A stretch of DNA of 64,000 nt, taken from a virus. Taxonomy: Duplodnaviria > Caudoviricetes. A model generated the notes under the pieces. The model was given only the letters and a program-made list of their open reading frames with translations. It had not been told where the DNA came from and did no database searches. The stretch lies in the IMG/VR virus record IMGVR_UViG_3300024272_000023; one strand, given 5' to 3'. Position numbers and translations under genes: made by a program. Shown piece after piece: positions 31,801 through 63,867 of the stretch (the stretch's first letter is position 1; each line of letters begins with the position of its first letter).

Positions 31801-33680
31801 TTTTCATCTACCGCCTGAGTTATCCCCGCGATAGCTGTAGAAGTTTCTGTCTCAAGCGATGTTACCGACTCGATGGTGGCGTAAGTTTGAGATGCTTCTT
31901 GTTTTACTCCGGCAATTGCCTCCGAAGTTTCCGCTTCTAATGAGGTCACAGACTCGACAGTAGCATATGTATCAGCCACCTCTTGTTTTACTCCGGCAAT
32001 TGCCTCCGAAGTTTCCGCTTCTAATGAGGTCACAGACTCGACAGTAGCATATGTATCAGCCACCTCTTGTTTTACTCCGGCAATTGCCTCCGAAGTTTCA
32101 GACTTAAGCGACGTGACAGATTCGATAGTGGCATAAGTATCCGAGACCTCTTGTTTAAACCCAGCGATAGATGTATTGGTTTCGTCTTGCCATATAACAA
32201 GACCTGCTAGTGTTGTCGAGTCACTGTCTGCCCTTGCCACAAACCCAGCAGTCCCAGATTGTGTGCCGTTACTCCATGTTGCCAATGGTTCTACTTCTTG
32301 CACGAGTGATGTAATGTCTTCCTCGACTTCACCGATACTTTGGCTGAATTCATCGCGAGTATCATTTAAATTATTTTTTGTATCTTCTAAGCCTGAGGCA
32401 ATATTATCTATATTATTCTGCAATTCATCACAGGTATCTATCAAATCTTTTTTAGCTCCATTTAGTTCCTCAGATACCTCATCAATATTATTTTGTAAAT
32501 CTTCACAAGCACCCTGCAGTTCTTCCTTGGTTGCCTGCAACTCAAGAGCCGCATTCTCTAAACCGACCTGCATATCTATAGCCTGCTTTTCCATCTCTTT
32601 TCTTAATTCGGTGTTTTCTACCAACGCCTCGTTAGCTTTCTCAACTGCCTCATTGCGCATACTCTCAGCAGAAGTCGCCGCACTCTCGGCAATAGCTTTG
32701 GCTTGTGAAGAAATCAGCGTAGAGTTTGAAACCTGTGCTCCTAAATTAGTCACTTCACCCTCAAGCTTATCAACTGTACCTAAAGCCCCATCTACCTTAT
32801 CAGACATTATCTTATTAGACGTGTCAACCTCTGACGCCTTTTGATAAGCCTGATTCGCCACGTTGACTGCAGATATAATATTCGCCTCGGCAGCATCCAT
32901 GCGAGAGTCCAGCTCTTGTAATTCAGCACCAATTAAATTGATCTGATCTGCCGTTATATTTAATTTAATAGTTGCATATGGCACACCATTAATATTATGT
33001 AGTGCCACAACCTTATAACCACGCTTCGAGCTAACCGTAGTTGCTACGCCATATGCATTAGAAACAACATAGTCGCCCTCAACAACATCCAACTCACATC
33101 TCACAGGTGCTACGCCCGAAGTGGCCACTAATCCATAATGTTCATCTCTTGCGATATCGTCTTGCCCACCAACAAAAGCGGCGCTATCAACAACGACACC
33201 AAATATATCATCGCCTGTGCAGATAGATATGGTGCGAGCTTCCTTGTTTAATGTTACAAAATATCCCACACCGTTCTCGCCAATCGCGTGCCCATCTGCC
33301 CATTCGTAATAGTCTGCATTACCTTTTTTATCCGAATATATTGTTTGAAGGGCTTCGATTGAATTCAGCTCTTCACGAAGCCCAGTAATTGCGGTGATAG
33401 GGTGTGCATCATTAAGTTCTCTGTGATTTAATAAAGCGTGATTAAGTGCATCATCTTCCCCAGATGCAGGAAAAGCTTCAGACATTTCAATATCAATAAC
33501 TTCAACGTCAGTTACCTCTATAAAAGGCGTGTTCTCCTGGATAGCTACATCGCTTTGAACATCGACCACTTGTAGATCTTCATAAACCATTTCCTCTTCC
33601 TGCTCATCGGATACCTCTATAACAGGTACCTCCTGATCGATCACTTGCAGATCTTCATAAATTATTTCTTCTTCCTGCAT
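25860..33680 (-). CDS. giant tail fibre / adhesin: N-terminal peptidase G2-like domain, long coiled coil, three CBM-like domains, BspA LRR, C-terminal S74 chaperone
   Basis: NADYYEWADG...VGYFVTL...IFGVV; three GG(R/K)NL...K(L/I)E(R/K)GN...WTPAPED modules; VTSIGDKAF LRRs; SDRNEKNSI...HIGFISQDV...LRYGEFIAL. Confidence 0.8.
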   Translation of the reverse strand: MQEEEIIYEDLQVIDQEVPVIEVSDEQEEEMVYEDLQVVDVQSDVAIQENTPFIEVTDVEVIDIEMSEAFPASGEDDALNHALLNHRELNDAHPITAITGLREELNSIEALQTIYSDKKGNADYYEWADGHAIGENGVGYFVTLNKEARTISICTGDDIFGVVVDSAAFVGGQDDIARDEHYGLVATSGVAPVRCELDVVEGDYVVSNAYGVATTVSSKRGYKVVALHNINGVPYATIKLNITADQINLIGAELQELDSRMDAAEANIISAVNVANQAYQKASEVDTSNKIMSDKVDGALGTVDKLEGEVTNLGAQVSNSTLISSQAKAIAESAATSAESMRNEAVEKANEALVENTELRKEMEKQAIDMQVGLENAALELQATKEELQGACEDLQNNIDEVSEELNGAKKDLIDTCDELQNNIDNIASGLEDTKNNLNDTRDEFSQSIGEVEEDITSLVQEVEPLATWSNGTQSGTAGFVARADSDSTTLAGLVIWQDETNTSIAGFKQEVSDTYATIESVTSLKSETSEAIAGVKQEVADTYATVESVTSLEAETSEAIAGVKQEVADTYATVESVTSLEAETSEAIAGVKQEASQTYATIESVTSLETETSTAIAGITQAVDENKASIKNVTTWQNNFSIGGKNLACDKFITHSGVTVNNTINNGSKKGWNITKNAGYHGTRISQEILKSKETYTLSYFFQGTSGTLKNIGGHSADFIFSKIILDGVQMPSLSAYGNGIPLDEDGSTDKPFKEHYIILTFVVNPEVLSDENIYIQPNRGVDMVITYDLWNIKLERGNQVMDWTPAPEDMAESIASVEQKADANEANITLLTAWKDETTTSITEIEATTNANEAALSAVASYEKDGKTGFAGLVAQVDENKSSISALAGFDDNLAGLQAQVDENTASVETLTSWKSDVGDEVSSITSIKQQADANKTSIESITAWQGTANTSIAAVIQKANVNESSISSLASWKSEVESDISSIASIKQTASANEACIEQLTQKDTELNTTIAGVKATADTNKASIEQITSWKNETNTALAGITATANANSASINTLAQYSNSDSGNSGIAGLVADVNDNTSELSAIVNHEFTKNDGTTVTGLAGLNTYIKENESNVSLVSNRVAGKYVVMPEWVDKNRDTSKIYAFKEDGTRKYAYCVGGNSWTRTSSWAALQNNSKVDTNHVYYIVVDKVYRYYEAGWKETADAYTAGLPASIAGIQVVTDATSSSINSLTSWQGDTNTSMARIEQKADANGAYIQSTVSNMDKYSVGPHSQAYGFTLEQAASVLEEGMIYVPTVSVTEEYEYTDVDKAVQKYTRSFTPQYLYKWGKVSDQYRWITIDKNYTETSEVNTSSKAVYFTTTEPTVSGNFGYWYTNGANVTSPYEAYTLYKWESYVDESNATQYHWVVVATLAGNSQSRAVSQVRQDTNSIVAEVVDAYGSVAGFGAWLSDTASEVQSITSWKTDPGGSQYNLANIKQTADNAGASIAQVVESVGEDGKVTAASIVTAVNDAGSSVVIEADHINLNGYVTMTDLSTLGSTTIHGANIATRTITADQIDVNNLLVNETFSVSIQGSIDSAIDNIEIGGRNLLLNTGGNKDITLVGSSARVIGLDSYSVENGVLTLNANTSINEIYYRFMNPGAIALYTLEAGSTYTFSGKVKVTTSATTATSGGSLISLNVRSQANATDSEFSHYWTGGINTPIATADTTDWVYFAETFAVEENAVGYYLSFQLYYDNYYKGTIQFSELKLEKGNKATSWTPAPEDVVSAGGRNLIAKSDYSLTVDGKNTAPIAIDKNSKSGFGFVCAGGTTNYDIFCHSEDLDLETDTEYTVSFTAWLETTDTTARQKLTWDLWPDTLPQKFLEVTSVPERYHWTVSSQHTDMTNARFRVFTYEADAEGYYAKYPIYVTDIKIERGNSVTDWTPAPEDMVGRDNVITCINASSEGVTIRGDKISVDGTTTFKSWSDTINGLTTNKDGQTVINGGKIDATSLTLSADNIDSGTYSKAINVADKFIVDTNGNVVARDVDATGGTIGGWHIEEDMLYSGTELMGHVGLCSSSLSSLSYEDIFEIEKNDDDKTCEITKLKLHLSQVNIPFKIGEYSVTSIGDKAFAYQANITSVVIPDSVTSIGKEAFWNCSGLETVYIPDSVSTMGANAFSCGMTTDDLSICMIYCEATPQPSSWDSTWNNSERPVTWGYVLTSIFSSIVNPNTTSNARIFAGSAFKKPTGPILPNFLVLEDGSLYANAASINGTVNATEGHFGALSIYKGLITSKDGGLTLDSNSREVMTKKVSATEELGSPKVKTSIISGMNEMTSLDLDDSETPSEKVEVHAGSTIIKEGTFDYGIPIQLGLTIITPEEVRDEGQVQIGVSLYFKDPSTGILHKRTPLQSRTFRVTVWYTNNINISHYVTFEPGASSKSFTVPHLIQRGYKVETFDSVSYYVGDFIQPSASVVNKITCNGNFVSGKNGETTYTLGTQDSRWKEIWCVQSDLNSLSDRNEKNSIEAIPDQYGTFFDELQPVRYKFNVNDSNRYHIGFISQDVRDALQKTNISTSDFAGYIEYDKNDGSKGYGLRYGEFIALCVNEIQKLKKRVEELENKLETMQND
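31897..32099. repeat. perfect 84-bp (28-aa) tandem repeat, about 2.4 copies, with diverged flanking copies
   Basis: TCTTGTTTTACTCCGGCAATTGCCTCCGAAGTTTC recurs at 31897, 31981 and 32065. Confidence 0.95.
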
Positions 33681-33693
33681 TTATTATCACCTC

Positions 33694-34089
33694 TCATATA
33701 ATATTTTGACCATCAAGTATAATAAGCCCATCGTAGGTCGGAGTAGGTAAGATTACATCATCTAAAATAGAGTCGTCGTAAACCGGATAAACCGTAATTA
33801 ACTGTTCTCGACTAGCAAAAGGTGTGCCCGTTGCAGTTACTGCCCTCAATTGGACTTTCGCCTTTCTTTTTTCTGTAAACCTCAATGTTTCCTCTTGGCT
33901 TAGTGTTATACTAAGCTCGTTGGATTGACTACCTTGACGGCATTGTTCTTTAACTTTTAAAATTGGCAAGGGTCTATCATTTGATGGTCCATTGTTGTTA
34001 TCTTGCCAAAAAGTGATTTTTACTATTGCCAGTTCAGAAAAATCATACGGCATTTTAAATCGGAATTCTGCGTTTGCTCCACGAATCAT
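33694..34089 (-). CDS. BppU-N-like adaptor protein
   Basis: MIRG..AEFRF...LSITLSQEETLRF...KVQLR pattern of phage fibre anchor domains. Confidence 0.5.
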   Translation of the reverse strand: MIRGANAEFRFKMPYDFSELAIVKITFWQDNNNGPSNDRPLPILKVKEQCRQGSQSNELSITLSQEETLRFTEKRKAKVQLRAVTATGTPFASREQLITVYPVYDDSILDDVILPTPTYDGLIILDGQNII

Positions 34090-34144
34090 AGACACCACTC
34101 CTTTCTTTGTATTTTTAATTTATTTATAATAAATGAGTTTTATA

Positions 34145-34693
34145 TTATGATATTTTATTGCAGAAGTCTAAAAACATCTGCTCAATTTCCTCTGTTGTGA
34201 TGCCATATTCCGAAAGACCTTTAGGGACTTTCTTCATAGGTTTACGGCAAATTGCCTTGATGTGTTCAAGGTTAGTGTTAATGCCTATATGGATAGTTGA
34301 ATACTGAATATGACCATAAGGTGTTGCACTTAGACCACTAATTTTGTATCCGTCAATGAGAACATCATTATCTTCATAGGTTGCTTTCAGACCTCTCTTC
34401 TTATATTGTTCGATAAGGTAATCAGCAAATCTGTGCATCCACTTATCACCAATAGCACCGAAGTGAACAACACTCACATCACCTTCACTCACTACTACAA
34501 CGCCACCTGTGTGTTGAGTATTGAGTACAGTGTAGCCTTCGTTATCACATACCTCTCTGTCAATAGAGTCGGGGTCGGTCATAAAAATGGATTTTTCATC
34601 GTGAACACAATAGGCAATGCCGTGTTCTTGATTTGTGATGAAATGTTGAATTGTTGATATAGCTTCATTACTCTTTACTTTTTTAATGTTCAT
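34145..34693 (-). CDS. lipoate-protein ligase / BPL-LplA-LipB fold protein
   Basis: HTGGVVVVSEGD aligns with RxSGGGAVxHDxG; NDVLIDGYKISG matches the conserved ND...GxKISG motif; ATG overlaps the upstream TAA. Confidence 0.7.
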   Translation of the reverse strand: MNIKKVKSNEAISTIQHFITNQEHGIAYCVHDEKSIFMTDPDSIDREVCDNEGYTVLNTQHTGGVVVVSEGDVSVVHFGAIGDKWMHRFADYLIEQYKKRGLKATYEDNDVLIDGYKISGLSATPYGHIQYSTIHIGINTNLEHIKAICRKPMKKVPKGLSEYGITTEEIEQMFLDFCNKIS

Positions 34694-36156
34694 TATGCTT
34701 CCTCCGTAATCTTATCTGCATAAGTAGTTCCAAATGCAGATTTGTATGCTTCAGCACAACCTTTAGGGACAATAATTTGACTAACAGTATAACTACCATT
34801 ACCTAAAGCATGTGTACCACCTAAATTAGGTGGAGTAGTAGAAAGAAAATGGAAAATCTTTTTTGCTGAGCTTGCCAAACCGTAAAAAGCACTGTTGCCT
34901 ATTTTAGTTACTGTTGAAGGAATTGTAACGTATGTCAGTGCCGTTGCATTTGCATTACCCCCTGAAAAGGCATCTTCACCTATCACAGTAAGCCCTTCGG
35001 GAAGAGATAAGCTTGTTAAACTACTACAACCATCACAAAAACCTTTAGGAATTTCGAGTATACCACTAGGGATAGACATACTTGTTAAGGCTCTACAGTC
35101 CTCAAACATTCTTTCACCTAAAACAGCGCCCTGGGGGATTGTAACGCTTGTTAGAGGGTTATAAAGGAAAGCTCTTGAACCCCAAGTTTTTACTGTTGTA
35201 GGTACAGTGATACTTTGTAGTTCATTATATGCAAACGCACTACTGCCAACACTTGTAAGACTTGCAGGGAAATTAACACTAGTAATAGCGTTATTATAAA
35301 AAGCTTGTTCTCCTATAGATTCTACGCCATTTGGTATTGTGTAACTACCTGACACTTTGACAAGTGCTGTAATTAACTCTTTACCGTCCTTATTAAGAAG
35401 TAAGGCACCGTCAGTAGAGTATGTCTTGTTGTTAGGGTCAATGGAAACATTAGATAGGTTTGTGCCATTAAAAGAGCTATAGGAAATACTTTTAACAGAA
35501 GCAGGAATGTGAATGTGTGATAATGATGTACAACTGTCGAAAGCTGAATCACCTATAGATTCAAGGTTTTCACCAAGTTCCACGTTGTTTAGATTTGTAC
35601 ACCCGCCAAAAGCTCGCTTTCCTATTGTTTTCAGGTTCTTGCCTAATACAACGCTCGTTAATAAAGAATTGTTCTCAAAAGCAAATTGAGGTATAGAGGT
35701 CGCCGAACCTGTGTCTTCAATACCTATAACACATCTGCAATATGTGGTGTCATCTTTTGAAATGTTATAACTGCTGGTAGAAAATGCTGCACAATCTCCT
35801 TCAATCATCAGTGTTCCACTTGAAGGTGTTGCCACACTATCACTAGCACCTTTGAAAGTTCCGAAAAATACTTGTTGTGCACTAGGTTCTGCTGTACCAC
35901 TTGTATCTGAAATAGGCTTTTGTACACCACCATAAGTAACTCTAACTTTTCCGTTGGGTTTAGGATAAATGTCAAGTAATATAAACTCTTCGTTTGGGCG
36001 TGTTGTACCACCTGAGTAGGTATCGGAAGTGATTTTCTTAACCTCTAAAACAGCAGGCCCACCTAAACTCCACAGAATACGTCCTGCATTATCAGTAATC
36101 AGTGTTACTACACCTTCGGGAATGTCAAGGCCTTGCAATGTAGCAAAATCAATCAT
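34693..36156 (-). CDS. BspA-type leucine-rich-repeat (LRR_5) protein
   Basis: About ten LxxIGxxAFxxCxxLxxI repeats. Confidence 0.85.
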   Translation of the reverse strand: MIDFATLQGLDIPEGVVTLITDNAGRILWSLGGPAVLEVKKITSDTYSGGTTRPNEEFILLDIYPKPNGKVRVTYGGVQKPISDTSGTAEPSAQQVFFGTFKGASDSVATPSSGTLMIEGDCAAFSTSSYNISKDDTTYCRCVIGIEDTGSATSIPQFAFENNSLLTSVVLGKNLKTIGKRAFGGCTNLNNVELGENLESIGDSAFDSCTSLSHIHIPASVKSISYSSFNGTNLSNVSIDPNNKTYSTDGALLLNKDGKELITALVKVSGSYTIPNGVESIGEQAFYNNAITSVNFPASLTSVGSSAFAYNELQSITVPTTVKTWGSRAFLYNPLTSVTIPQGAVLGERMFEDCRALTSMSIPSGILEIPKGFCDGCSSLTSLSLPEGLTVIGEDAFSGGNANATALTYVTIPSTVTKIGNSAFYGLASSAKKIFHFLSTTPPNLGGTHALGNGSYTVSQIIVPKGCAEAYKSAFGTTYADKITEEA

Positions 36157-37079
36157 CCTACATACACCGCCTTTGTTACGATTCTGCCGTCTTCAAGGGT
36201 GAAAGTCCAAGTTTCGGTTTTCAAGCCAAGCTGCTCAAGAGTCACTCCGTGAGGATTATTTTTGTCATTAATATGTGCAGTAAGATTACTCTGAACGGCT
36301 GCCGCACTACCAGGAGCGTCTGCTTGTGTGAGATATCCAGCGTCATTTGTGAACTGACTCACATTAGTGGGTGTTCCCGTCAAATCTCCGTATGCGCCAC
36401 TCGTTGCCACGTCTGATAATCCAAGTATGTCCGCAGTCACCCCATGTGGATTTCCACTTGTTATCTGACTATGATCATAAGCGGTTTTCCCCTTATCTCC
36501 ATAATATGCAGTATTAGAAGTTTCACCAAGTGCGAGTGACTCCGAAATTTCTGCAAATACCGAACTGCTCCAACGATATGTTCGAAGAGAAGCAAGATCA
36601 AGATAGATTTTACCTGTTTCTGGAGCTATCTCTTTTGCCTTAGCTTCATCTTCATAAAATTTAGTACAATCCTCACTTACATAGCCTTCTATAACGTCAT
36701 CAACATATGAAGGCAGCTGAGTGGACGGAACGTGCCCGTTAGCATCTAAAGTTGCCACACCACTCGCAGTACCCTTTTGAGCAATTGGAATGGCGCCCAC
36801 TTCGTCGGGTCCATAACTCGGTTTAGTTTCTGCTTTGGCCCAATCAGGCACGGTGGGGTCGGTTTCAGTATATGATTTGGCATTATCGAGTGCCGTCTGC
36901 ACCTCTTCAGTAAGGTCGCTCTTGGCAACCTCGTCTTTTGCAGCGAGGCTACCAAGAGTAGGTTTGTTTTTTATAAAATCTAATTGTGTTTCGTCGGTCT
37001 GGGTCCAGTCTGATTGAGGCATCTTCTTAAGACTACCTCCACCGCCACCGACCGTATCGCCGTAAATAGGTTTACTCAT
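36153..37079 (-). CDS. fibre/connector protein
   Basis: QSDWTQTD...FIKNKP, ETDPTVPDWAK, GVATLDANG.VP..QLP and NPHGVT motifs typical of phage fibre shafts. Confidence 0.65.
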   Translation of the reverse strand: MSKPIYGDTVGGGGGSLKKMPQSDWTQTDETQLDFIKNKPTLGSLAAKDEVAKSDLTEEVQTALDNAKSYTETDPTVPDWAKAETKPSYGPDEVGAIPIAQKGTASGVATLDANGHVPSTQLPSYVDDVIEGYVSEDCTKFYEDEAKAKEIAPETGKIYLDLASLRTYRWSSSVFAEISESLALGETSNTAYYGDKGKTAYDHSQITSGNPHGVTADILGLSDVATSGAYGDLTGTPTNVSQFTNDAGYLTQADAPGSAAAVQSNLTAHINDKNNPHGVTLEQLGLKTETWTFTLEDGRIVTKAVYVG

Positions 37080-37620
37080 CTTCAGACACCTCCATATCTA
37101 ATACAACTTCAGTCACAGTCGCTTGTATCGGAAGTGAGCCTTCTGGCTTAGCACCAACGGCATAGACCGTAATAACACCACCGACATTTTTAGTAGTCAA
37201 TGCAACGCCCCAATCGTAGAGACGACATAAGTCACTAGTTGTGGGCTGTAAATCGACCTTGCTATTTGGTGTAATAACTGCATTTTCCACAGTTACCACC
37301 TGCGAGTATGTGTCCACCACATCTGCACCATCAATATCCACCGCTTGCTCCCACTTATCCGCATAAAGCGTAACAGATATAGGTTTCGGCAAAAGGAAGC
37401 TATCGACGCTCATATATGGTAAAGCACTGAATGGATCTTTACCGTTACCAATTTTAAGTCTTGGAATGCCGTTATCATATTCAAGAACGAGTTCACCAGC
37501 AAGCGGTATAAGATGATTCGGTTGGGCCTCATATTCGGCCCAATCATCTCGTGGCGAGCCTGTCTCAGGATCTGAATCCCATTTCCAGCCACGACGTAGT
37601 TGAGAGATATATATAGACAT
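37072..37620 (-). CDS. protein with an Mtd-N / hyaluronidase-N-like docking domain
   Basis: QLRRG...PLAGELVLEYD...RLKIGNGKDPFSALPY. Confidence 0.65.
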   Translation of the reverse strand: MSIYISQLRRGWKWDSDPETGSPRDDWAEYEAQPNHLIPLAGELVLEYDNGIPRLKIGNGKDPFSALPYMSVDSFLLPKPISVTLYADKWEQAVDIDGADVVDTYSQVVTVENAVITPNSKVDLQPTTSDLCRLYDWGVALTTKNVGGVITVYAVGAKPEGSLPIQATVTEVVLDMEVSEDE

Positions 37621-37655
37621 CAATCTCACTCCTTTCTTAAATAATATTATTTCTA

Positions 37656-40600
37656 TTAATGTATCATATATGTTACTGAGGTAATACTTGTTAAGTCAAC
37701 ATTTCCTAAATTAAATCTCAACTCCCAGTTATTATTTGTAGTGCTACCGGTGCCTGAAATATATAAATAATTTTTTATCATCTTGTTGCTACTATTAAGT
37801 GCAGTAGTTAAGACATAATATGACTCTATCTTATTATTATCAGCAGTAATAATAGGAAGATATAATGGAAAAGTATTGATTAGAGAACGACCACTAGTTT
37901 GTTTTATTTCAGCTGTAATGAAATAGTGTTTTCCATGTGGTACTCCACTTATAATTGTAGAGGCACTAAAATCACTATAAACTGGGTCGGGATTCCTGTC
38001 TTCTCCTACTTCGTGTATAAGCGAAGTTAACTTAAGCCCTGGGTCTAAAATTCCACTTGATAATTTTGCTTCAAGATTATCAAAATTCTTCTGTAACGTA
38101 TTGTAAGCAGAAGAATCAACCTTATTGGTATTTAACTTATTATATAGTCCATCTGCATAAGTTTTCACTGCCTCATCTTGAGAATCAATATAATCTTTAG
38201 TAACTTCAGAGCCTTGAATTTCAGCGAATTTTGCATCAACATAGTCTTTAATTGCTGACTTATAACCCCATTCAATTGCACATTGAGCTCTATTCCATCC
38301 ATCATTCCAATTAATTGGCTTAGATGGAGCTTCACAGTAAATAGCAAATCCAAGAACAAAAGAATTAGTAAATACTGTACTTCCCATAGTTTCAACACTA
38401 GCAGGAATAACTATACTGTTTAAATTTCCGCATCCAGCGAATGCGCCAAAACCTATGTTAGATACATTATTACCAATAGTACAATCAGTAAGAGAAATAC
38501 AATCTGCAAATGCACGTTCACCAATAGTAACTATTGTATCTGGAATTTTAACACTTGTAATTGCTCCATTTCCATTAAAAGCATCATCGCCAATAATGGT
38601 AACTTTTTTGCCATTATAAAAAGCAGGAATAATAAGGTTCGTATCAGAACAAGTACCAATACCAGTAAGTGTATAAGTTCCATCTTGATTTAAAGCGTAT
38701 TCAAGACCTTCGCTTGCACCTGGGGTAAAAGCATTAGTAATTGTATCATTAACGTATCCTTTATTTACTAAAATACTTGCACCACTGGCTTCTGATACAT
38801 TACCTTGCAATTCGCCGTTTTCATTTGCAAGAGGAATGTAACAAACCGAATCTTCTATAACGTTAAATATATTATTTTCTTCAGTGATAGCTACACTTTC
38901 ATCATAAACTTCAAAATAATTATTTACAAAAGCCTCATCTTCAAATGTTATCTTATTTGCAAAGGGCATTGTTAAACTACCACTATTTACAAATAAGATA
39001 TTATCCATATTAACAATTGTTGCTTTTTTATTTATGCGCCAATCAATGTAAGTCAAATCTTTGGTAGAAGTTGTAGCTGCAGTACTGTAATAACAGTTAA
39101 TATTAGAAGCAACTTCAATATCATTTACTAATACAGTAAGCGTAGATTGGTTACCAGCCCTATGATAGTAAAGTTTAAGATTAAACCATTCATTATAAGG
39201 TAATTCACAAATCGTATCAGAACCAGTTCCTCCTGAGCCAGTGTTATATTGAAGTAAAGTCAATACATCGTTGGATAGCTGAAAAGCTAGACCAAATAAA
39301 TAAGTTTGTGAACTTCTGAATATTATTTCGGACATTCTTAAGCTACTTGAGCTATTATATTTTAGGTCTAATGACAAAAGAGAATATTCACCTACACCAT
39401 TCATGAGTTTTATACGAGATATTGCACGAGTGGTTGCAGAATTTGCGTTAATATTCAATACTTTACTTTTTATAGATTGAGAAGCAACTGGATACTGTTT
39501 TGTAGTAGAATTATAATTATCAGCATATCTTTTAGCAGTGTCTAATGTATCATTTATAACCGTAACTGCATCACTATACTTTTGATCAGCATATTTAGCA
39601 GCAGTACTAACGGCTTGACTTGCTTTGTTGTCAGCCTCTGTAATTGCATATTCAATAGCAGTATCTACATATTTTTTAGACATTGCTCTCTGATTCTCAT
39701 CATAGTTATCATCCCCAACAGCAGGCTGAGATTCACCATAGTTGCTAACAGGAACTCTTAAGAAACCATCATCCATTCTTAAAGGAACACTATCCATCAT
39801 CTTGTTTTGAGCAAAATCTTCTGGATCAGGATCACGAGGCCCAAAAGGATTAGGAGACAATGTTACTCTACGATTAATGCCTTTACCATTTGATCTATCC
39901 ACATAAACGCGATTATAAGAATCTGCAAAACCTTTCTTCGCATTACTATAAGGGACAGGCGAACCTAATAAGTATCTATATCCAATAGCACCTTCAACCG
40001 CCTCCCATGAAGCTGTAGCTCCATCTTCACTAATAGTTACAACAGGTGTTGGTAAATATTGAGGATGTCCTCTTTCTGCCGACTCCATAGGGCTACCATC
40101 TTCATTGATAAAACTATATGAACTGTCGTAGTATTCAGAATTACTATCAGCAAGAGCACAAACCATAATTGAATTACCATTAAGTTCTACAGTCAGCGTT
40201 TCTGATGTTACTTCTACTGGAGTGCTCTTTATATAATAGACGCGATTATTATCTTCTTCTCCATCAAAAGTTCTCATAAGAGAAACTTTATTTGAGCTAA
40301 CTTCTTCTAAAGATGCATCAACATACTTTTTATTAACAGCATCCAAATCTTCTTTAGGCTCTGCTGTCTTAATAATACCATTTTCACGAAGAGGAATTTG
40401 ATAAGGGTACATTAATTCCCCATCTTCATAAGCTTCATTTATAGAGTGAGATATTAAATGCAGTTCATAAGCATCCTTACCATCTCTTCTTTGTACGGTA
40501 TATGCGAAATGTCCATCTCTTTCAGGAGTAGGTAATTTTTCATCAACTATGCTATTTGTAAGTTCAATCCATTCATTTTGATAAGAGTATATTTTTGTCT

Positions 40601-41198
40601 CTAATAGCAATCTAATAGTAGCATCATTGGGATCTTCACTAATATTGTTGATTACTCCATCATAACTCCAACCTGCAATAGGAAGTAATTGTGTTGCATT
40701 ATACCAACCAGGTATGACTGTTGTTCCTGCTAATTGGCTAAAACCAGCAGCTAATGTTTCATCAAGATAGCCATACACTTCGCCATCACTTAAATCATAG
40801 TATGCGGTAATGGCGGTTCTTTCGAGATTTGTTGCAGGTTCTCCAATTTCAGGTCTATTGTCTACGATATAGCATTTTGAGTTATCTACAATATGGCGAT
40901 TGTGAATAAATGTTGCTTTAAATAATCTATAAAGTGCCTTTTCATCTATATTTTCTGTTGGAAGTTCATCAATTACATCCTGAATTGATGAAACATATTC
41001 TTTAATTTCATCTAAAGACATTCCGGTTAATGTTTCTGCGTCTTTAGCATTAATTTGTTTTCTTTGCAGTTTACCGTCTGCATCGGTATAATCTATGTGG
41101 AACGTGCCGTCGTCTACACAAAAATATGCATATCCATCGTGTAATGGTTGAGTTTCTAATGACGCACGGTTTCCTCGAAATGGTTTCCAAAGTGCCAT
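37656..41198 (-). CDS. multidomain accessory fibre/adhesin (N-terminal docking module, LamG-like region, BspA LRR)
   Basis: KPFRGN...DGYAYF N-terminus; KKYVD repeats; LPYNEWFNLKL; VTIIGDDAF LRRs. Confidence 0.65.
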   Translation of the reverse strand: MALWKPFRGNRASLETQPLHDGYAYFCVDDGTFHIDYTDADGKLQRKQINAKDAETLTGMSLDEIKEYVSSIQDVIDELPTENIDEKALYRLFKATFIHNRHIVDNSKCYIVDNRPEIGEPATNLERTAITAYYDLSDGEVYGYLDETLAAGFSQLAGTTVIPGWYNATQLLPIAGWSYDGVINNISEDPNDATIRLLLETKIYSYQNEWIELTNSIVDEKLPTPERDGHFAYTVQRRDGKDAYELHLISHSINEAYEDGELMYPYQIPLRENGIIKTAEPKEDLDAVNKKYVDASLEEVSSNKVSLMRTFDGEEDNNRVYYIKSTPVEVTSETLTVELNGNSIMVCALADSNSEYYDSSYSFINEDGSPMESAERGHPQYLPTPVVTISEDGATASWEAVEGAIGYRYLLGSPVPYSNAKKGFADSYNRVYVDRSNGKGINRRVTLSPNPFGPRDPDPEDFAQNKMMDSVPLRMDDGFLRVPVSNYGESQPAVGDDNYDENQRAMSKKYVDTAIEYAITEADNKASQAVSTAAKYADQKYSDAVTVINDTLDTAKRYADNYNSTTKQYPVASQSIKSKVLNINANSATTRAISRIKLMNGVGEYSLLSLDLKYNSSSSLRMSEIIFRSSQTYLFGLAFQLSNDVLTLLQYNTGSGGTGSDTICELPYNEWFNLKLYYHRAGNQSTLTVLVNDIEVASNINCYYSTAATTSTKDLTYIDWRINKKATIVNMDNILFVNSGSLTMPFANKITFEDEAFVNNYFEVYDESVAITEENNIFNVIEDSVCYIPLANENGELQGNVSEASGASILVNKGYVNDTITNAFTPGASEGLEYALNQDGTYTLTGIGTCSDTNLIIPAFYNGKKVTIIGDDAFNGNGAITSVKIPDTIVTIGERAFADCISLTDCTIGNNVSNIGFGAFAGCGNLNSIVIPASVETMGSTVFTNSFVLGFAIYCEAPSKPINWNDGWNRAQCAIEWGYKSAIKDYVDAKFAEIQGSEVTKDYIDSQDEAVKTYADGLYNKLNTNKVDSSAYNTLQKNFDNLEAKLSSGILDPGLKLTSLIHEVGEDRNPDPVYSDFSASTIISGVPHGKHYFITAEIKQTSGRSLINTFPLYLPIITADNNKIESYYVLTTALNSSNKMIKNYLYISGTGSTTNNNWELRFNLGNVDLTSITSVTYMIH

Positions 41199-54533: not shown

Positions 54534-55232
54534 TTAATTGTTGGAGATGTATTTCCACACAAATCCTCCTGCAGTCTTATACTTATTTTTTAAACACGCT
54601 GATATATTGCTGCGATTGATATGTAAAGTTTCTCCCGCACTTTTGACAGAGTCCCATTCTCGAATAAAAATGTTATCTTTGGTGTATTGTGCAATTCTTT
54701 TCTTATGTGCGTTACCATTGTTTTTACGCCAAACATCCGTGCAATATTGTACTGCAAGTTCGCTGTGTCGTCGCCTCTTCTCGTCCGTCCAATAATTTTT
54801 ATTTGATTCGCTAATTTTGCGACGAGTTTCTTCTGTTCGTGGTTTACCATAATTAATATTATTTTCACCTAGATGCGATTCTCTCATTTTTTGACGTATT
54901 TCTTCTGAAATACTTGTACCAATATGAAGTTCCCTTTGCATATTACTAAATACAATGCGGGCCTCCTCATATTCCTCAGAGGTAATTTCAACCCTCCCAA
55001 TATGAGACATCATCCACCACGCACAGGTTAATTTGTTGTTTTCAGGATTCTCTTGCGCCAAAAGTTTATGTGCAACAAAATGCTCTCGTGCTAACAAATC
55101 AATTAGATTGCCATCATCATCTGTGCCGCCAAGACATTTTGGTACAATATGATGCCTTTCATGATATGTTTCGTCGCAAACAAAACGTCCGCGAGTGTCT
55201 AAAATATTTTGTATAAATTCTGCATAACTCAT
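54534..55232 (-). CDS. free-standing HNH homing endonuclease with NUMOD3/NUMOD1 DNA-binding repeats
   Basis: ERHHIVPKCLGG...NLIDL.AREHFVAHKLL; SEEIRQKMRES and TEETRRKISES; IAQYTKD...WDS...ISACL...KTAGGFVWKY. Confidence 0.85.
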   Translation of the reverse strand: MSYAEFIQNILDTRGRFVCDETYHERHHIVPKCLGGTDDDGNLIDLLAREHFVAHKLLAQENPENNKLTCAWWMMSHIGRVEITSEEYEEARIVFSNMQRELHIGTSISEEIRQKMRESHLGENNINYGKPRTEETRRKISESNKNYWTDEKRRRHSELAVQYCTDVWRKNNGNAHKKRIAQYTKDNIFIREWDSVKSAGETLHINRSNISACLKNKYKTAGGFVWKYISNN

Positions 55233-55273
55233 AATTATTTCCTCCAAATACTTTTCAAAATAAAAAACAGAAA

Positions 55274-55447
55274 TCAGTGTTTTCTTGACTTCCATTCTGT
55301 TAATAAATTATTCAATTGCTCATTGCCGTTAAATACCCAATATTTTTTGTTGGTGGATGGGTGTATTCCTGCAACAATTGAAGCCTGTCCATTGGCAATC
55401 AAAAATTCTTTTAGTGGATAACTGTAACAATAAAAATACTTATCCAT
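55274..55447 (-). CDS. DUF5659-like 57-aa protein (not in the supplied ORF track)
   Basis: MDKYFYCYSYPLKEFLIANG...HPSTNKKYWVF...LNNLLTEW; AGGAG RBS. Confidence 0.7.
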   Translation of the reverse strand: MDKYFYCYSYPLKEFLIANGQASIVAGIHPSTNKKYWVFNGNEQLNNLLTEWKSRKH

Positions 55448-63316: not shown

Positions 63317-63393
63317 TGGTCATCCACGCAGGGCACGATCCTGCAACTCCTGGTTTCGAAGACCAGCACTCTATCCAATTGAGTTAGTGGACG
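63317..63393 (-). tRNA. tRNA-Arg(TCG)
   Basis: Cloverleaf, CTGGT-CT TCG AA-ACCAG, encoded CCA. Confidence 0.9.
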
Positions 63394-63462
63394 ATAATGA
63401 TAGGAGGTTCCGCAGAACCTCCTATGGTTGTAGGCTTCACAAGTTTCCACAACGCGATCACT

Positions 63463-63539
63463 TGGTTGCGGTGGATGGACTCGAACCATCGACCTCCGAC
63501 TTATGAGGACGGCGAGCTAACCATCTGCTCTACACCGCA
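63463..63539 (-). tRNA. tRNA-Met(CAT), initiator-like body with an atypical anticodon stem
   Basis: CCGTC-CT CAT AA-GTCGG, GAGC/GCTC D-stem, encoded CCA. Confidence 0.85.
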
Positions 63540-63542
63540 ATA

Positions 63543-63618
63543 TGGAGCTTTCGCAGAGACTCGAACTCTGAACAGCTTGATTACAAATCAAGTACACTGC
63601 CAATTGTGTTACGAAAGC
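63543..63618 (-). tRNA. tRNA-Thr(TGT)
   Basis: CTTGA-TT TGT AA-TCAAG, encoded CCA. Confidence 0.9.
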
Positions 63619-63621
63619 ATG

Positions 63622-63697
63622 TGGTACCTCCGGCGAGGTTTGAACTCGCGTCTTAGCCTTGAAAGGGCCATGTCTTAACCAACTTGACTACGGAGGC
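63622..63697 (-). tRNA. tRNA-Glu(TTC)
   Basis: TGGCC-CT TTC AA-GGCTA, encoded CCA. Confidence 0.9.
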
Positions 63698-63701
63698 ATT
63701 A

Positions 63702-63785
63702 TGGTGGGAGAGGTTGGAGTCGAACCCACTAAGCCAGAGGCAACGAGTTTACAGCCCGCCCCAGTTTCCGATTTGGTACTCTCCC
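63702..63785 (-). tRNA. tRNA-Tyr(GTA)
   Basis: GCGGG-CT GTA AA-CTCGT, long variable arm, encoded CCA. Confidence 0.9.
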
Positions 63786-63790
63786 ATATA

Positions 63791-63867
63791 TGGCGATTCC
63801 GAGGGGACTTGAACCCCTGGCCTCTAGCGTGACAGGCTAGCGCTCTAACCAACTGAGCTACGGAACC
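63791..63867 (-). tRNA. tRNA-Asp(GTC)
   Basis: CTAGC-CT GTC AC-GCTAG, encoded CCA. Confidence 0.95.

Follow-up and report, generated by a model that had tools for sequence, protein, structure and literature searches.

What is a lipoate-ligase fold doing among the tail-fibre genes of a phage? The question is raised by a 64,000-nucleotide stretch of viral DNA (IMG/VR record IMGVR_UViG_3300024272_000023, Caudoviricetes; hereafter the window), in which a minus-strand gene at 34145-34693 encodes a 182-amino-acid protein that resembles the catalytic domain of lipoate ligases. We call this gene mini-LplA. It follows, with a one-base overlap, the gene for a BspA-type leucine-rich repeat (LRR) fibre protein. 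Below we describe its fold, the phage-specific family to which it belongs and the recurrent position of that family behind fibre genes, and we weigh what the protein might do. Our best single reading, held with somewhat less than even confidence, is that mini-LplA may be an active Lys/Cys acyl-transferase tied to the distal fibre.

A catalytic-domain-only protein translationally coupled to an LRR fibre gene

A sequence-only reading of this DNA had described a 182-residue protein with two quoted motifs, one of them a diverged stand-in for the RRxSGGGAVxHD of lipoate ligases, with the LplA accessory domain missing and the start codon overlapping the stop of a BspA-LRR gene as TAATG. All of these statements held up. 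The open reading frame and its translation agree with the description: residues 109-120 read NDVLIDGYKISG and residues 58-72 read NTQHTGGVVVVSEGD, and the latter aligns opposite VRRxSGGGAVFHDLGN in 19 LplAs of Clostridia and in E. coli LplA. The mini-LplA ATG begins at 34693 and the TAA of the LRR gene occupies 34695-34693, so that a single base is common to the two genes; the minus strand across the junction reads ...GGAGGAAGCATAATG. The two elements of the coupled start are as follows.

34145..34693, minus strand: mini-LplA gene (P0001), encoding a 182-amino-acid, catalytic-domain-only LplA/LipB-fold protein (open reading frame, translation, Pfam, AlphaFold2, Foldseek and VIA)
34700..34705, minus strand: Shine-Dalgarno sequence GGAGGA of the mini-LplA gene, within the final codons of the LRR gene (read from the sequence)

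The conserved ends of the LRR proteins (…VEA/TEEA) are explained by the Shine-Dalgarno sequence that lies in these codons. No terminator-like site was found on the minus strand within 33000-38000. The G+C content of the mini-LplA gene is 37%, similar to that of the neighbouring genes. The identical protein was found on 19 contigs, the longest of 170 kb, and the phage is present in animal faeces metagenomes.

The assignment to the lipoate-ligase fold, as the sequence-only reading had proposed, was supported by every method applied to it. Pfam PF21948 (LplA-B_cat) matches residues 43-159 with 39.8 bits and relatives of the protein pass its threshold too; because the score exceeds the curated gathering cut-off of 27, the match is far beyond a chance motif. 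A phmmer search of the Protein Data Bank (PDB) returned Listeria LplA1 (8cri, E 3.7e-5). An AlphaFold2 model built from a 30-sequence alignment had a pLDDT of 94.8, and Foldseek ranked lipoate ligases first (LplA1 8crj, E 3e-12), then LipB, then biotin ligases. VIA on the model gave a Z of 19.8 for the bovine lipoyltransferase LIPT1 (2e5a), about 18 for LplA catalytic domains and 18.3 for T. thermophilus LipB (2qhs), with biotin ligase (BPL) chains at about 11-12 compared to 15-20 for the lipoyl enzymes. In these superpositions 181 of the 182 residues lie on target residues ~3-211/224 of LplA-type chains, and no accessory-domain Pfam match was found among the 45 window proteins scanned. Mini-LplA is an entire catalytic domain with its loops trimmed, and nothing more. 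LplA-B_cat is its sole Pfam match, there is no PHROG match, and Tfa-type chaperone families gave none.

Within this fold the protein is not a canonical LplA. The LplA lysine motif ND-L-x-x-G-x-K-x-SG is present, and K117 aligns with the lysine of host LplAs. Of the lipoate loop RRxxGGGxV(F/Y)HD, GG alone is kept; mini-LplA has N/T in place of RR and V/S in place of HD, and family members differ at these positions. The biotin loop GRGRxGR does not occur in the mini-LplA sequence. The arginine of the LipB RGG is not conserved either, the residue before GG being E/N/R/F/A/T and position 61 H/N/R. The NCBIfam LplA equivalog TIGR00545 scores 19.3 bits, far under its cut-off of 280. With the accessory domain absent, RR and HD lost and the equivalog score this low, mini-LplA falls outside the canonical LplAs.

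A large phage-specific family with a conserved pocket

A word-indexed search found 497 relatives (clusters at 90% identity) of 100-319 amino acids, most of about 182 and all metagenomic. An exhaustive search of 1.84 billion representatives returned 364 clusters at E <= 0.001, nearly all of 175-195 amino acids, and no longer forms of the P0001 family were present among the longer proteins searched. In the ESM Atlas, the clusters of the family carry the label Viruses. A protein search of 50,697 GenBank phage records with four members did not find the family and returned only unannotated Listeria fragments resembling host LplA; megablast of 20 kb and PADLOC gave no match, and the literature library searched yielded no paper on phage LplA-like genes or LRR-fibre partners.

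Related contigs are binned with Oscillospirales/Clostridia genomes, and these bins make Oscillospirales the candidate hosts. Among 399 sampled Clostridia genomes the mini form occurred only in the bin holding a phage contig; 89 other sampled genomes carry ordinary LplAs of 305-400 amino acids that match model positions ~16-148 only. In a maximum-likelihood tree the mini family is monophyletic with respect to host LplAs, with full support and on a long branch. We conclude from these comparisons that mini-LplA is the type of a large phage-specific family. The possibility that its homologues are ordinary host ligases in random contexts is refuted by this phage-specific clade together with its conserved site behind fibre genes, described below.

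Conservation was counted over 125 family representatives with a mean identity of 24%. N109, D110 and K117 are invariant, G63, G64, C149, K151, K155 and P157 are kept at 92% or more, and I145 and L160 are also near-invariant. The codons of the key residues are listed here.

34502..34507, minus strand: codons of G63-G64, remnant of the lipoate-binding loop (LplA RRxxGGG, LipB RGG); glycine in 118 and 116 of 125
34364..34369, minus strand: codons of N109-D110, 125 of 125, corresponding to the ND of GRND in host LplAs
34343..34345, minus strand: codon of K117, the invariant active-site lysine of the ND-L-DG-K-SG motif; 125 of 125, aligned with E. coli LplA K133 and LipB K135
34247..34249, minus strand: codon of C149, the family-specific, near-invariant cysteine that opens the IC-KPM-K-PKGL loop; Cys in 120 of 125, Ser in 4

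In the alignment with the 19 Clostridia LplAs and E. coli LplA, the host motif VRRxSGGGAVFHD has shrunk to GG in mini-LplA and the host lysine motif GRNDLxIDGKKxSG is retained as EDNDVLIDGYKISG. The C-terminal signature I-C-x-K-P-M-x-K-x-P-K-G-L is without counterpart in host LplAs, in which the position of C149 is a variable K/N/R/S/T. The pocket residues are conserved in every genomic context of the family. Such a pattern of conservation is that of an enzyme pocket; a binding surface would not show it.

Some members (P0026, P0052, P0083 and P0092; L014:7836-8549 and L029:89-811) have a conserved N-terminal extension of 53 amino acids (…EKEYLSYR…EPFHL.DA..ECGF…).

Recurrent position directly behind BspA-LRR fibre genes

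The genes on either side of mini-LplA in the window are these.

36153..37079, minus strand: 308-amino-acid tail-fibre protein with NPHGVT repeats (PHROG tail-fibre and minor-tail matches); its stop overlaps the start of the LRR gene
34693..36156, minus strand: BspA-type LRR fibre protein P0271, 487 amino acids, with N-terminal docking module, beta-sandwich (residues ~35-150), LRR_5 repeats and C-terminal cap (Pfam LRR_5, E 1.6e-69)
33694..34098, minus strand: 134-amino-acid protein, next downstream (PHROG match to phrog_15594, function unassigned)

Loci carrying family members came from viral records (12), genome bins (9) and metagenomes (64). Their neighbours were called mechanically, and collapsing at 90% identity left 70 clusters, of which 57 are informative. 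The next gene upstream is a same-strand BspA-LRR gene in 35 of these 57 non-redundant loci, and the gap between the two genes ranges from -20 to +20 nucleotides. LRR genes make up 8% of all genes in those loci, partners included, and the enrichment has a binomial p of ~2e-24, a figure that is not a true probability because the loci are related. Pfam gave weak LRR_5 matches upstream in three more loci (L005, L052 and L055), equivalent to two further clusters. The other upstream genes are mostly large, co-directional and equally tightly abutting, and a few have fibre-type PHROG matches. Downstream neighbours are not conserved across loci. The survey of phage homologues that the sequence-only reading had called for therefore yields a conserved site directly behind fibre genes, mostly of the BspA-LRR type.

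On the tree, both major clades of the family contain LRR-linked members, and at least five changes of state are well supported; the linkage is therefore old and has been both kept and lost. A second genomic context for the family is provided by a complete phage of 54,433 bp, in which a divergent member (L013:7788-8393; K155H, P157F) lies between a Prim-Pol/D5_N/DUF5906 primase-helicase and a 692-amino-acid gene.

Several further observations concern the junction itself. The last ~25 residues of the 308-amino-acid fibre protein (window 36153-36230, minus strand) recur at 65-78% identity in other phages, where they form the ends of open reading frames of 69-70 amino acids (L002:6902-7111, L003:6848-7060) or of a 458-amino-acid protein (L015:44-1420), directly before the LRR gene. 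Fibre end, LRR gene and mini-LplA form a three-gene junction that travels as one. On a lone 24.5-kb metagenomic contig, the 605-amino-acid protein P0166 carries a fibre-like N-terminal part fused to a mini-LplA domain at residues 440-602. Degenerate BspA-LRR-like repeats and a YDW..N.TPT tail make this first part similar to the partners in L018 and L053; the singleton may be a real fusion or an assembly error. In the window, no mini-LplA gene follows the gene of a second LRR_5 fibre protein (1180 amino acids; 37656-41198, minus strand; LRR_5 at residues 864-946), so not every LRR fibre of this phage has a mini-LplA partner.

The LRR partner protein

The LRR partners span 250-714 amino acids across loci. 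Those of the closest clade have in common a docking motif at the N terminus, a beta-sandwich and a cap at the C terminus; with more distant partners, the LRR part is all that is shared. The motif that opens the LRR partners is M-I-D-F-x-T-L-x-G-L-x-I-P-E-G-x-V...G-R-V-L-W (window 36070-36156, minus strand), and it also opens two non-LRR genes upstream of mini-LplA genes (L014:7171-7824 and L017:6513-7832). It looks like a docking module shared by exchangeable distal fibre proteins.

The beta module, at residues ~30-155 (window 35692-36069, minus strand), has invariant K41, L60, L61, P65, G99 and G103, among others, in 18 sequences. Its model has a pLDDT of 92.4. Against the PDB, Foldseek returned nothing at E <= 0.001, and the best VIA matches were CBM36-like jelly rolls with a Z of 5.0. 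The module may be a new fibre domain. We considered whether it could be a hidden acceptor of the lipoyl type, by way of K41, and set the idea aside as unlikely: the VIA list contained no lipoyl or biotinyl domain, and the module is present in the closest clade only. A complex prediction for the LRR protein with mini-LplA scored 0.14 (mark 0.32), which gives no verdict and counts neither way.

Comparison with known lipoyl enzymes and fibre chaperones

The closest known proteins are the LplA catalytic domains. Those of E. coli LplA, Listeria LplA1 (8cri/8crj), T. acidophilum LplA-N (2art) and LIPT1 (2e5a) match the whole protein in fold, with a Z of 17-20 and a root-mean-square deviation of 2.3-3.0 A over 174-181 residues, and LplA is also the best sequence match. 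The lysine motif ND-x-L-x-D-G-x-K-x-SG is common to both, as are the GG of the lipoate loop and the K-G in the loop after it. Unlike LplA, mini-LplA has neither a C-terminal accessory domain nor an LplB-like partner and has ~30-40 fewer loop residues; it possesses a near-invariant cysteine within the IC-KPM-K-PKGL signature, and its gene lies in the fibre operon of a phage.

LipB (E. coli; T. thermophilus 2qhs; M. tuberculosis 1w66) is a single-domain protein of the same fold and similar size, with Z values of 18.3 and 16.4. Its lysine lies on the same strand, its cysteine is in the loop after the next helix, and the GG loop is kept. By contrast with LipB, the sequence of mini-LplA is nearer to LplA, it has no RGG arginine and no PCG motif, and the register of its cysteine is uncertain by up to 4 residues. 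LipM and LipL of Firmicutes (homologues 2p0l and 2p5i) are LplA-like proteins that consist of the catalytic domain only and use a cysteine acyl-enzyme. They match the fold with a Z of 15.3-15.5, but are ~80-100 residues longer than mini-LplA and ranked under LplA and LipB in every search.

A different likeness is found in gene order. Tfa of lambda, P2 and Mu and gp38 of the T-even phages have the same layout, a small gene directly after the distal fibre gene and co-translated with it. They have no sequence or fold relation to mini-LplA, and are not enzyme folds with conserved catalytic residues. By these comparisons mini-LplA would act most like LipB, LipM and LipL, looks most like the LplA catalytic domain and is placed like a fibre chaperone.

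Predicted chemistry

LipB, with its Lys135/Cys169 dyad, binds the octanoyl group to cysteine as a thioester, which the lysine of the acceptor then attacks (PMC9307952), and C150 of LipL forms an acyl-enzyme (bioRxiv 10.1101/419234). In mini-LplA, C149 lies in the loop after the helix that follows the lysine strand, the same loop that carries the catalytic cysteine of LipB, and hhalign paired K117 and C149 with LipB K135 and C169 at a probability of 39%. LplA-type enzymes need the accessory domain to form the adenylate, as is established for LplA of E. coli and for the bipartite LplA/LplB of T. acidophilum (PDB 3r07). Because both this domain and the RR and HD residues of LplA are absent, mini-LplA is unlikely to be an ATP-dependent ligase; the lost RR/HD and the gained cysteine point to the chemistry of a transferase rather than of the adenylating ligase implied by the sequence-only reading.

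Acceptors and likely hosts

No Biotin_lipoyl or GCV_H match was found by Pfam among the 45 window proteins scanned, as the sequence-only reading had noticed for lipoyl-domain genes, nor in three complete phages that carry the family (197.5 kb, 45 kb and 43 kb). The 134-amino-acid gene downstream of mini-LplA was considered as a GcvH-like acceptor and rejected, with no Pfam support and no conservation as a neighbour; its homologues were found only in L003 and L037, where they are not adjacent to the mini-LplA gene.

Among five bins with related contigs, two have host LplAs and E2-like lipoyl proteins. The other three contain the mini form and small biotin-carrier-like proteins only, in bins that are incomplete and for which the binning of phage contigs is unsure.

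Weighing the explanations

Three things favour a fibre-associated role: the linkage to fibre genes, the late structural operon to which the gene belongs and the lack of a canonical acceptor. Mini-LplA would be produced late, from the fibre operon, by coupled translation right after the BspA-LRR distal fibre protein. Lys117 and Cys149 would then transfer an acyl group, probably octanoyl- or lipoyl-like, by the thioester route of LipB, LipM and LipL. Its most likely target would be a lysine of the co-made fibre protein, or else the enzyme would stay with the fibre protein and act at the cell surface. We infer catalysis itself, the thioester route, the identity of the acyl group and the fibre as target. 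An active Lys/Cys acyl-transferase tied to the distal fibre is the best single reading, and falls a little short of an even chance. Within the fibre-associated reading, covalent acylation of the fibre accounts for about half. The more specific picture, in which phages of gut anaerobes have an acylation system of their own and mini-LplA either puts an octanoyl- or lipoyl-like group on a lysine of the LRR fibre or rides the fibre to acylate or deacylate a receptor, is rather unlikely as it stands.

Several findings weigh against the acyl-transferase reading. About 40% of the loci are without a recognisable LRR gene upstream, and the complete 54,433-bp phage, an IMG/VR record with direct terminal repeats, carries a family member and no LRR_5 gene. 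The end of the tail module is a frequent site of accessory 'moron' genes. The LRR proteins of the different partner types have no invariant lysine in common; K41 and K134 are invariant in the closest clade only. MAFFT places the LipB cysteine 4 residues after C149, in the same loop, and the hhalign pairing is of low probability. The arginine of the RGG/RRxxGGG loop helps to bind the donor phosphate in LipB and LplA; it is not conserved in the mini-LplA family, and donor binding would therefore differ from that of both. The proposal of the sequence-only reading, an enzyme that may acylate or cross-link fibre proteins or modify a receptor and is not a metabolic gene, is sustained in part: fold, minimal size, phage clade, fibre position and lack of an acceptor speak for it, and the LRR_5-free phage with a member in its replication module speaks against it.

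The layout that suggests a fibre role is also that of a chaperone. Mini-LplA could be a non-catalytic partner of the LRR fibre (a chaperone, an adaptor or a tip subunit, in the manner of Tfa or gp38), with a pocket that at most binds a ligand. A small gene coupled in translation and right after the distal fibre gene is the classic chaperone/adhesin arrangement and is seen family-wide, the residues of adenylate chemistry (RR and HD) are gone, and the single 605-amino-acid protein joins a fibre-like part to a mini-LplA domain. However, the near-invariant residues are those of the pocket and the catalytic site (ND, K117, GG and the C149 loop) and not a surface patch, a pattern that enzymes typically show; the fusion was seen once, on one contig, and may be an assembly artefact; and one member lies in the replication module of an LRR-free phage. 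We consider a purely structural partner unlikely. To a similar degree we doubt that the protein is a helper of host lipoylation or octanoylation, an auxiliary metabolic gene or 'moron' that would act on host E2 or GcvH and sit at a cargo hot spot of the fibre cassette. Its nearest relatives in sequence and structure are true lipoate ligases and transferases, the catalytic-domain-only LipB, LipM and LipL serve bacterial lipoylation, and two of the five phage-contig bins have host LplA and E2-like lipoyl proteins. Yet an LplA-type gene of any kind occurs in only 90 of the 399 sampled Clostridia, the other three bins, incomplete and of unsure binning, are without host LplA or an E2/GcvH-type acceptor, and the protein has lost those residues of the lipoate loop that are kept throughout the host LplAs. 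The tight overlap is moreover kept down to 25-30% identity and across phages of 43-197 kb, which exceeds what a cargo hot spot would lead one to expect.

Two further explanations fit the data less well. An enzyme of host take-over might run the LipL reaction in reverse, stripping lipoyl or octanoyl groups from host proteins onto its cysteine and discarding or re-routing them. The Lys/Cys arrangement without adenylation features would suit it, and amidotransfer through a cysteine acyl-enzyme is established for enzymes of the LipL type. The gene, however, lies in a late structural operon and not among early genes, the linkage to fibres would be left unaccounted for, and many likely hosts seem to be without lipoylated proteins; we regard such a role as very unlikely. 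The shortness of the protein relative to any canonical LplA and the loss of canonical loop residues might also be signs of a decaying, functionless fragment of an ordinary host ligase acquired by chance. This explanation hardly deserves credence given that full-length relatives number in the hundreds, are constant in size and keep invariant core residues, and given the exact protein on 19 contigs with a base composition like that of its neighbours, a strong ribosome site with a coupled start, and a clade that is monophyletic and ancient.

Other features of the window

The other genes around mini-LplA are fibre and tail genes, among them one for an Mtd_N-like protein of 185 amino acids and several for giant proteins that match Beta_helix, Peptidase_S74, PKD, DUF6558 and tape-measure families. 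At 215-1231 the minus strand encodes a TubZ-like tubulin GTPase (Pfam Tubulin, 1.4e-9; TubZ_C_3), and an HU-type DNA-binding protein is encoded elsewhere in the window; the two suggest a plasmid-like prophage lifestyle. Two further features were recorded.

54534-55295, minus strand: NUMOD1/NUMOD3/I-HmuI-like homing-endonuclease gene among head and packaging genes
63317-63867, minus strand: cluster of six tRNAs (Arg-TCG, Met, Thr-TGT, Glu-TTC, Tyr-GTA, Asp-GTC)

Significance

To our knowledge, the lipoyl/octanoyl-transferase fold has been associated only with the attachment of cofactors to a handful of metabolic proteins, and we know of no description of an enzyme-installed, lipid-like modification of phage fibres. 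Here a shrunken, phage-only form is widespread, has a rebuilt active-site loop and is tied to receptor-binding fibre genes, with no canonical acceptor in the phages examined and with likely hosts that often seem to be without lipoate metabolism. With neither a PHROG match nor a paper found, the family merits a name and a test. LplA variants already serve as labelling ligases (PDB 4tvw), and mini-LplA, if it is an enzyme, would offer a compact acyl-transferase scaffold of 182 residues that is of interest for protein labelling. Should it be a chaperone only, it would be a clear case of an enzyme fold re-used in virion assembly. If it acts on the fibre or the receptor, it would represent a new class of post-translational modification in phage adsorption and a new class of substrate for a textbook enzyme family, and, if acylation of the fibre is true, fibre function and host range would depend on a lipid-like modification.

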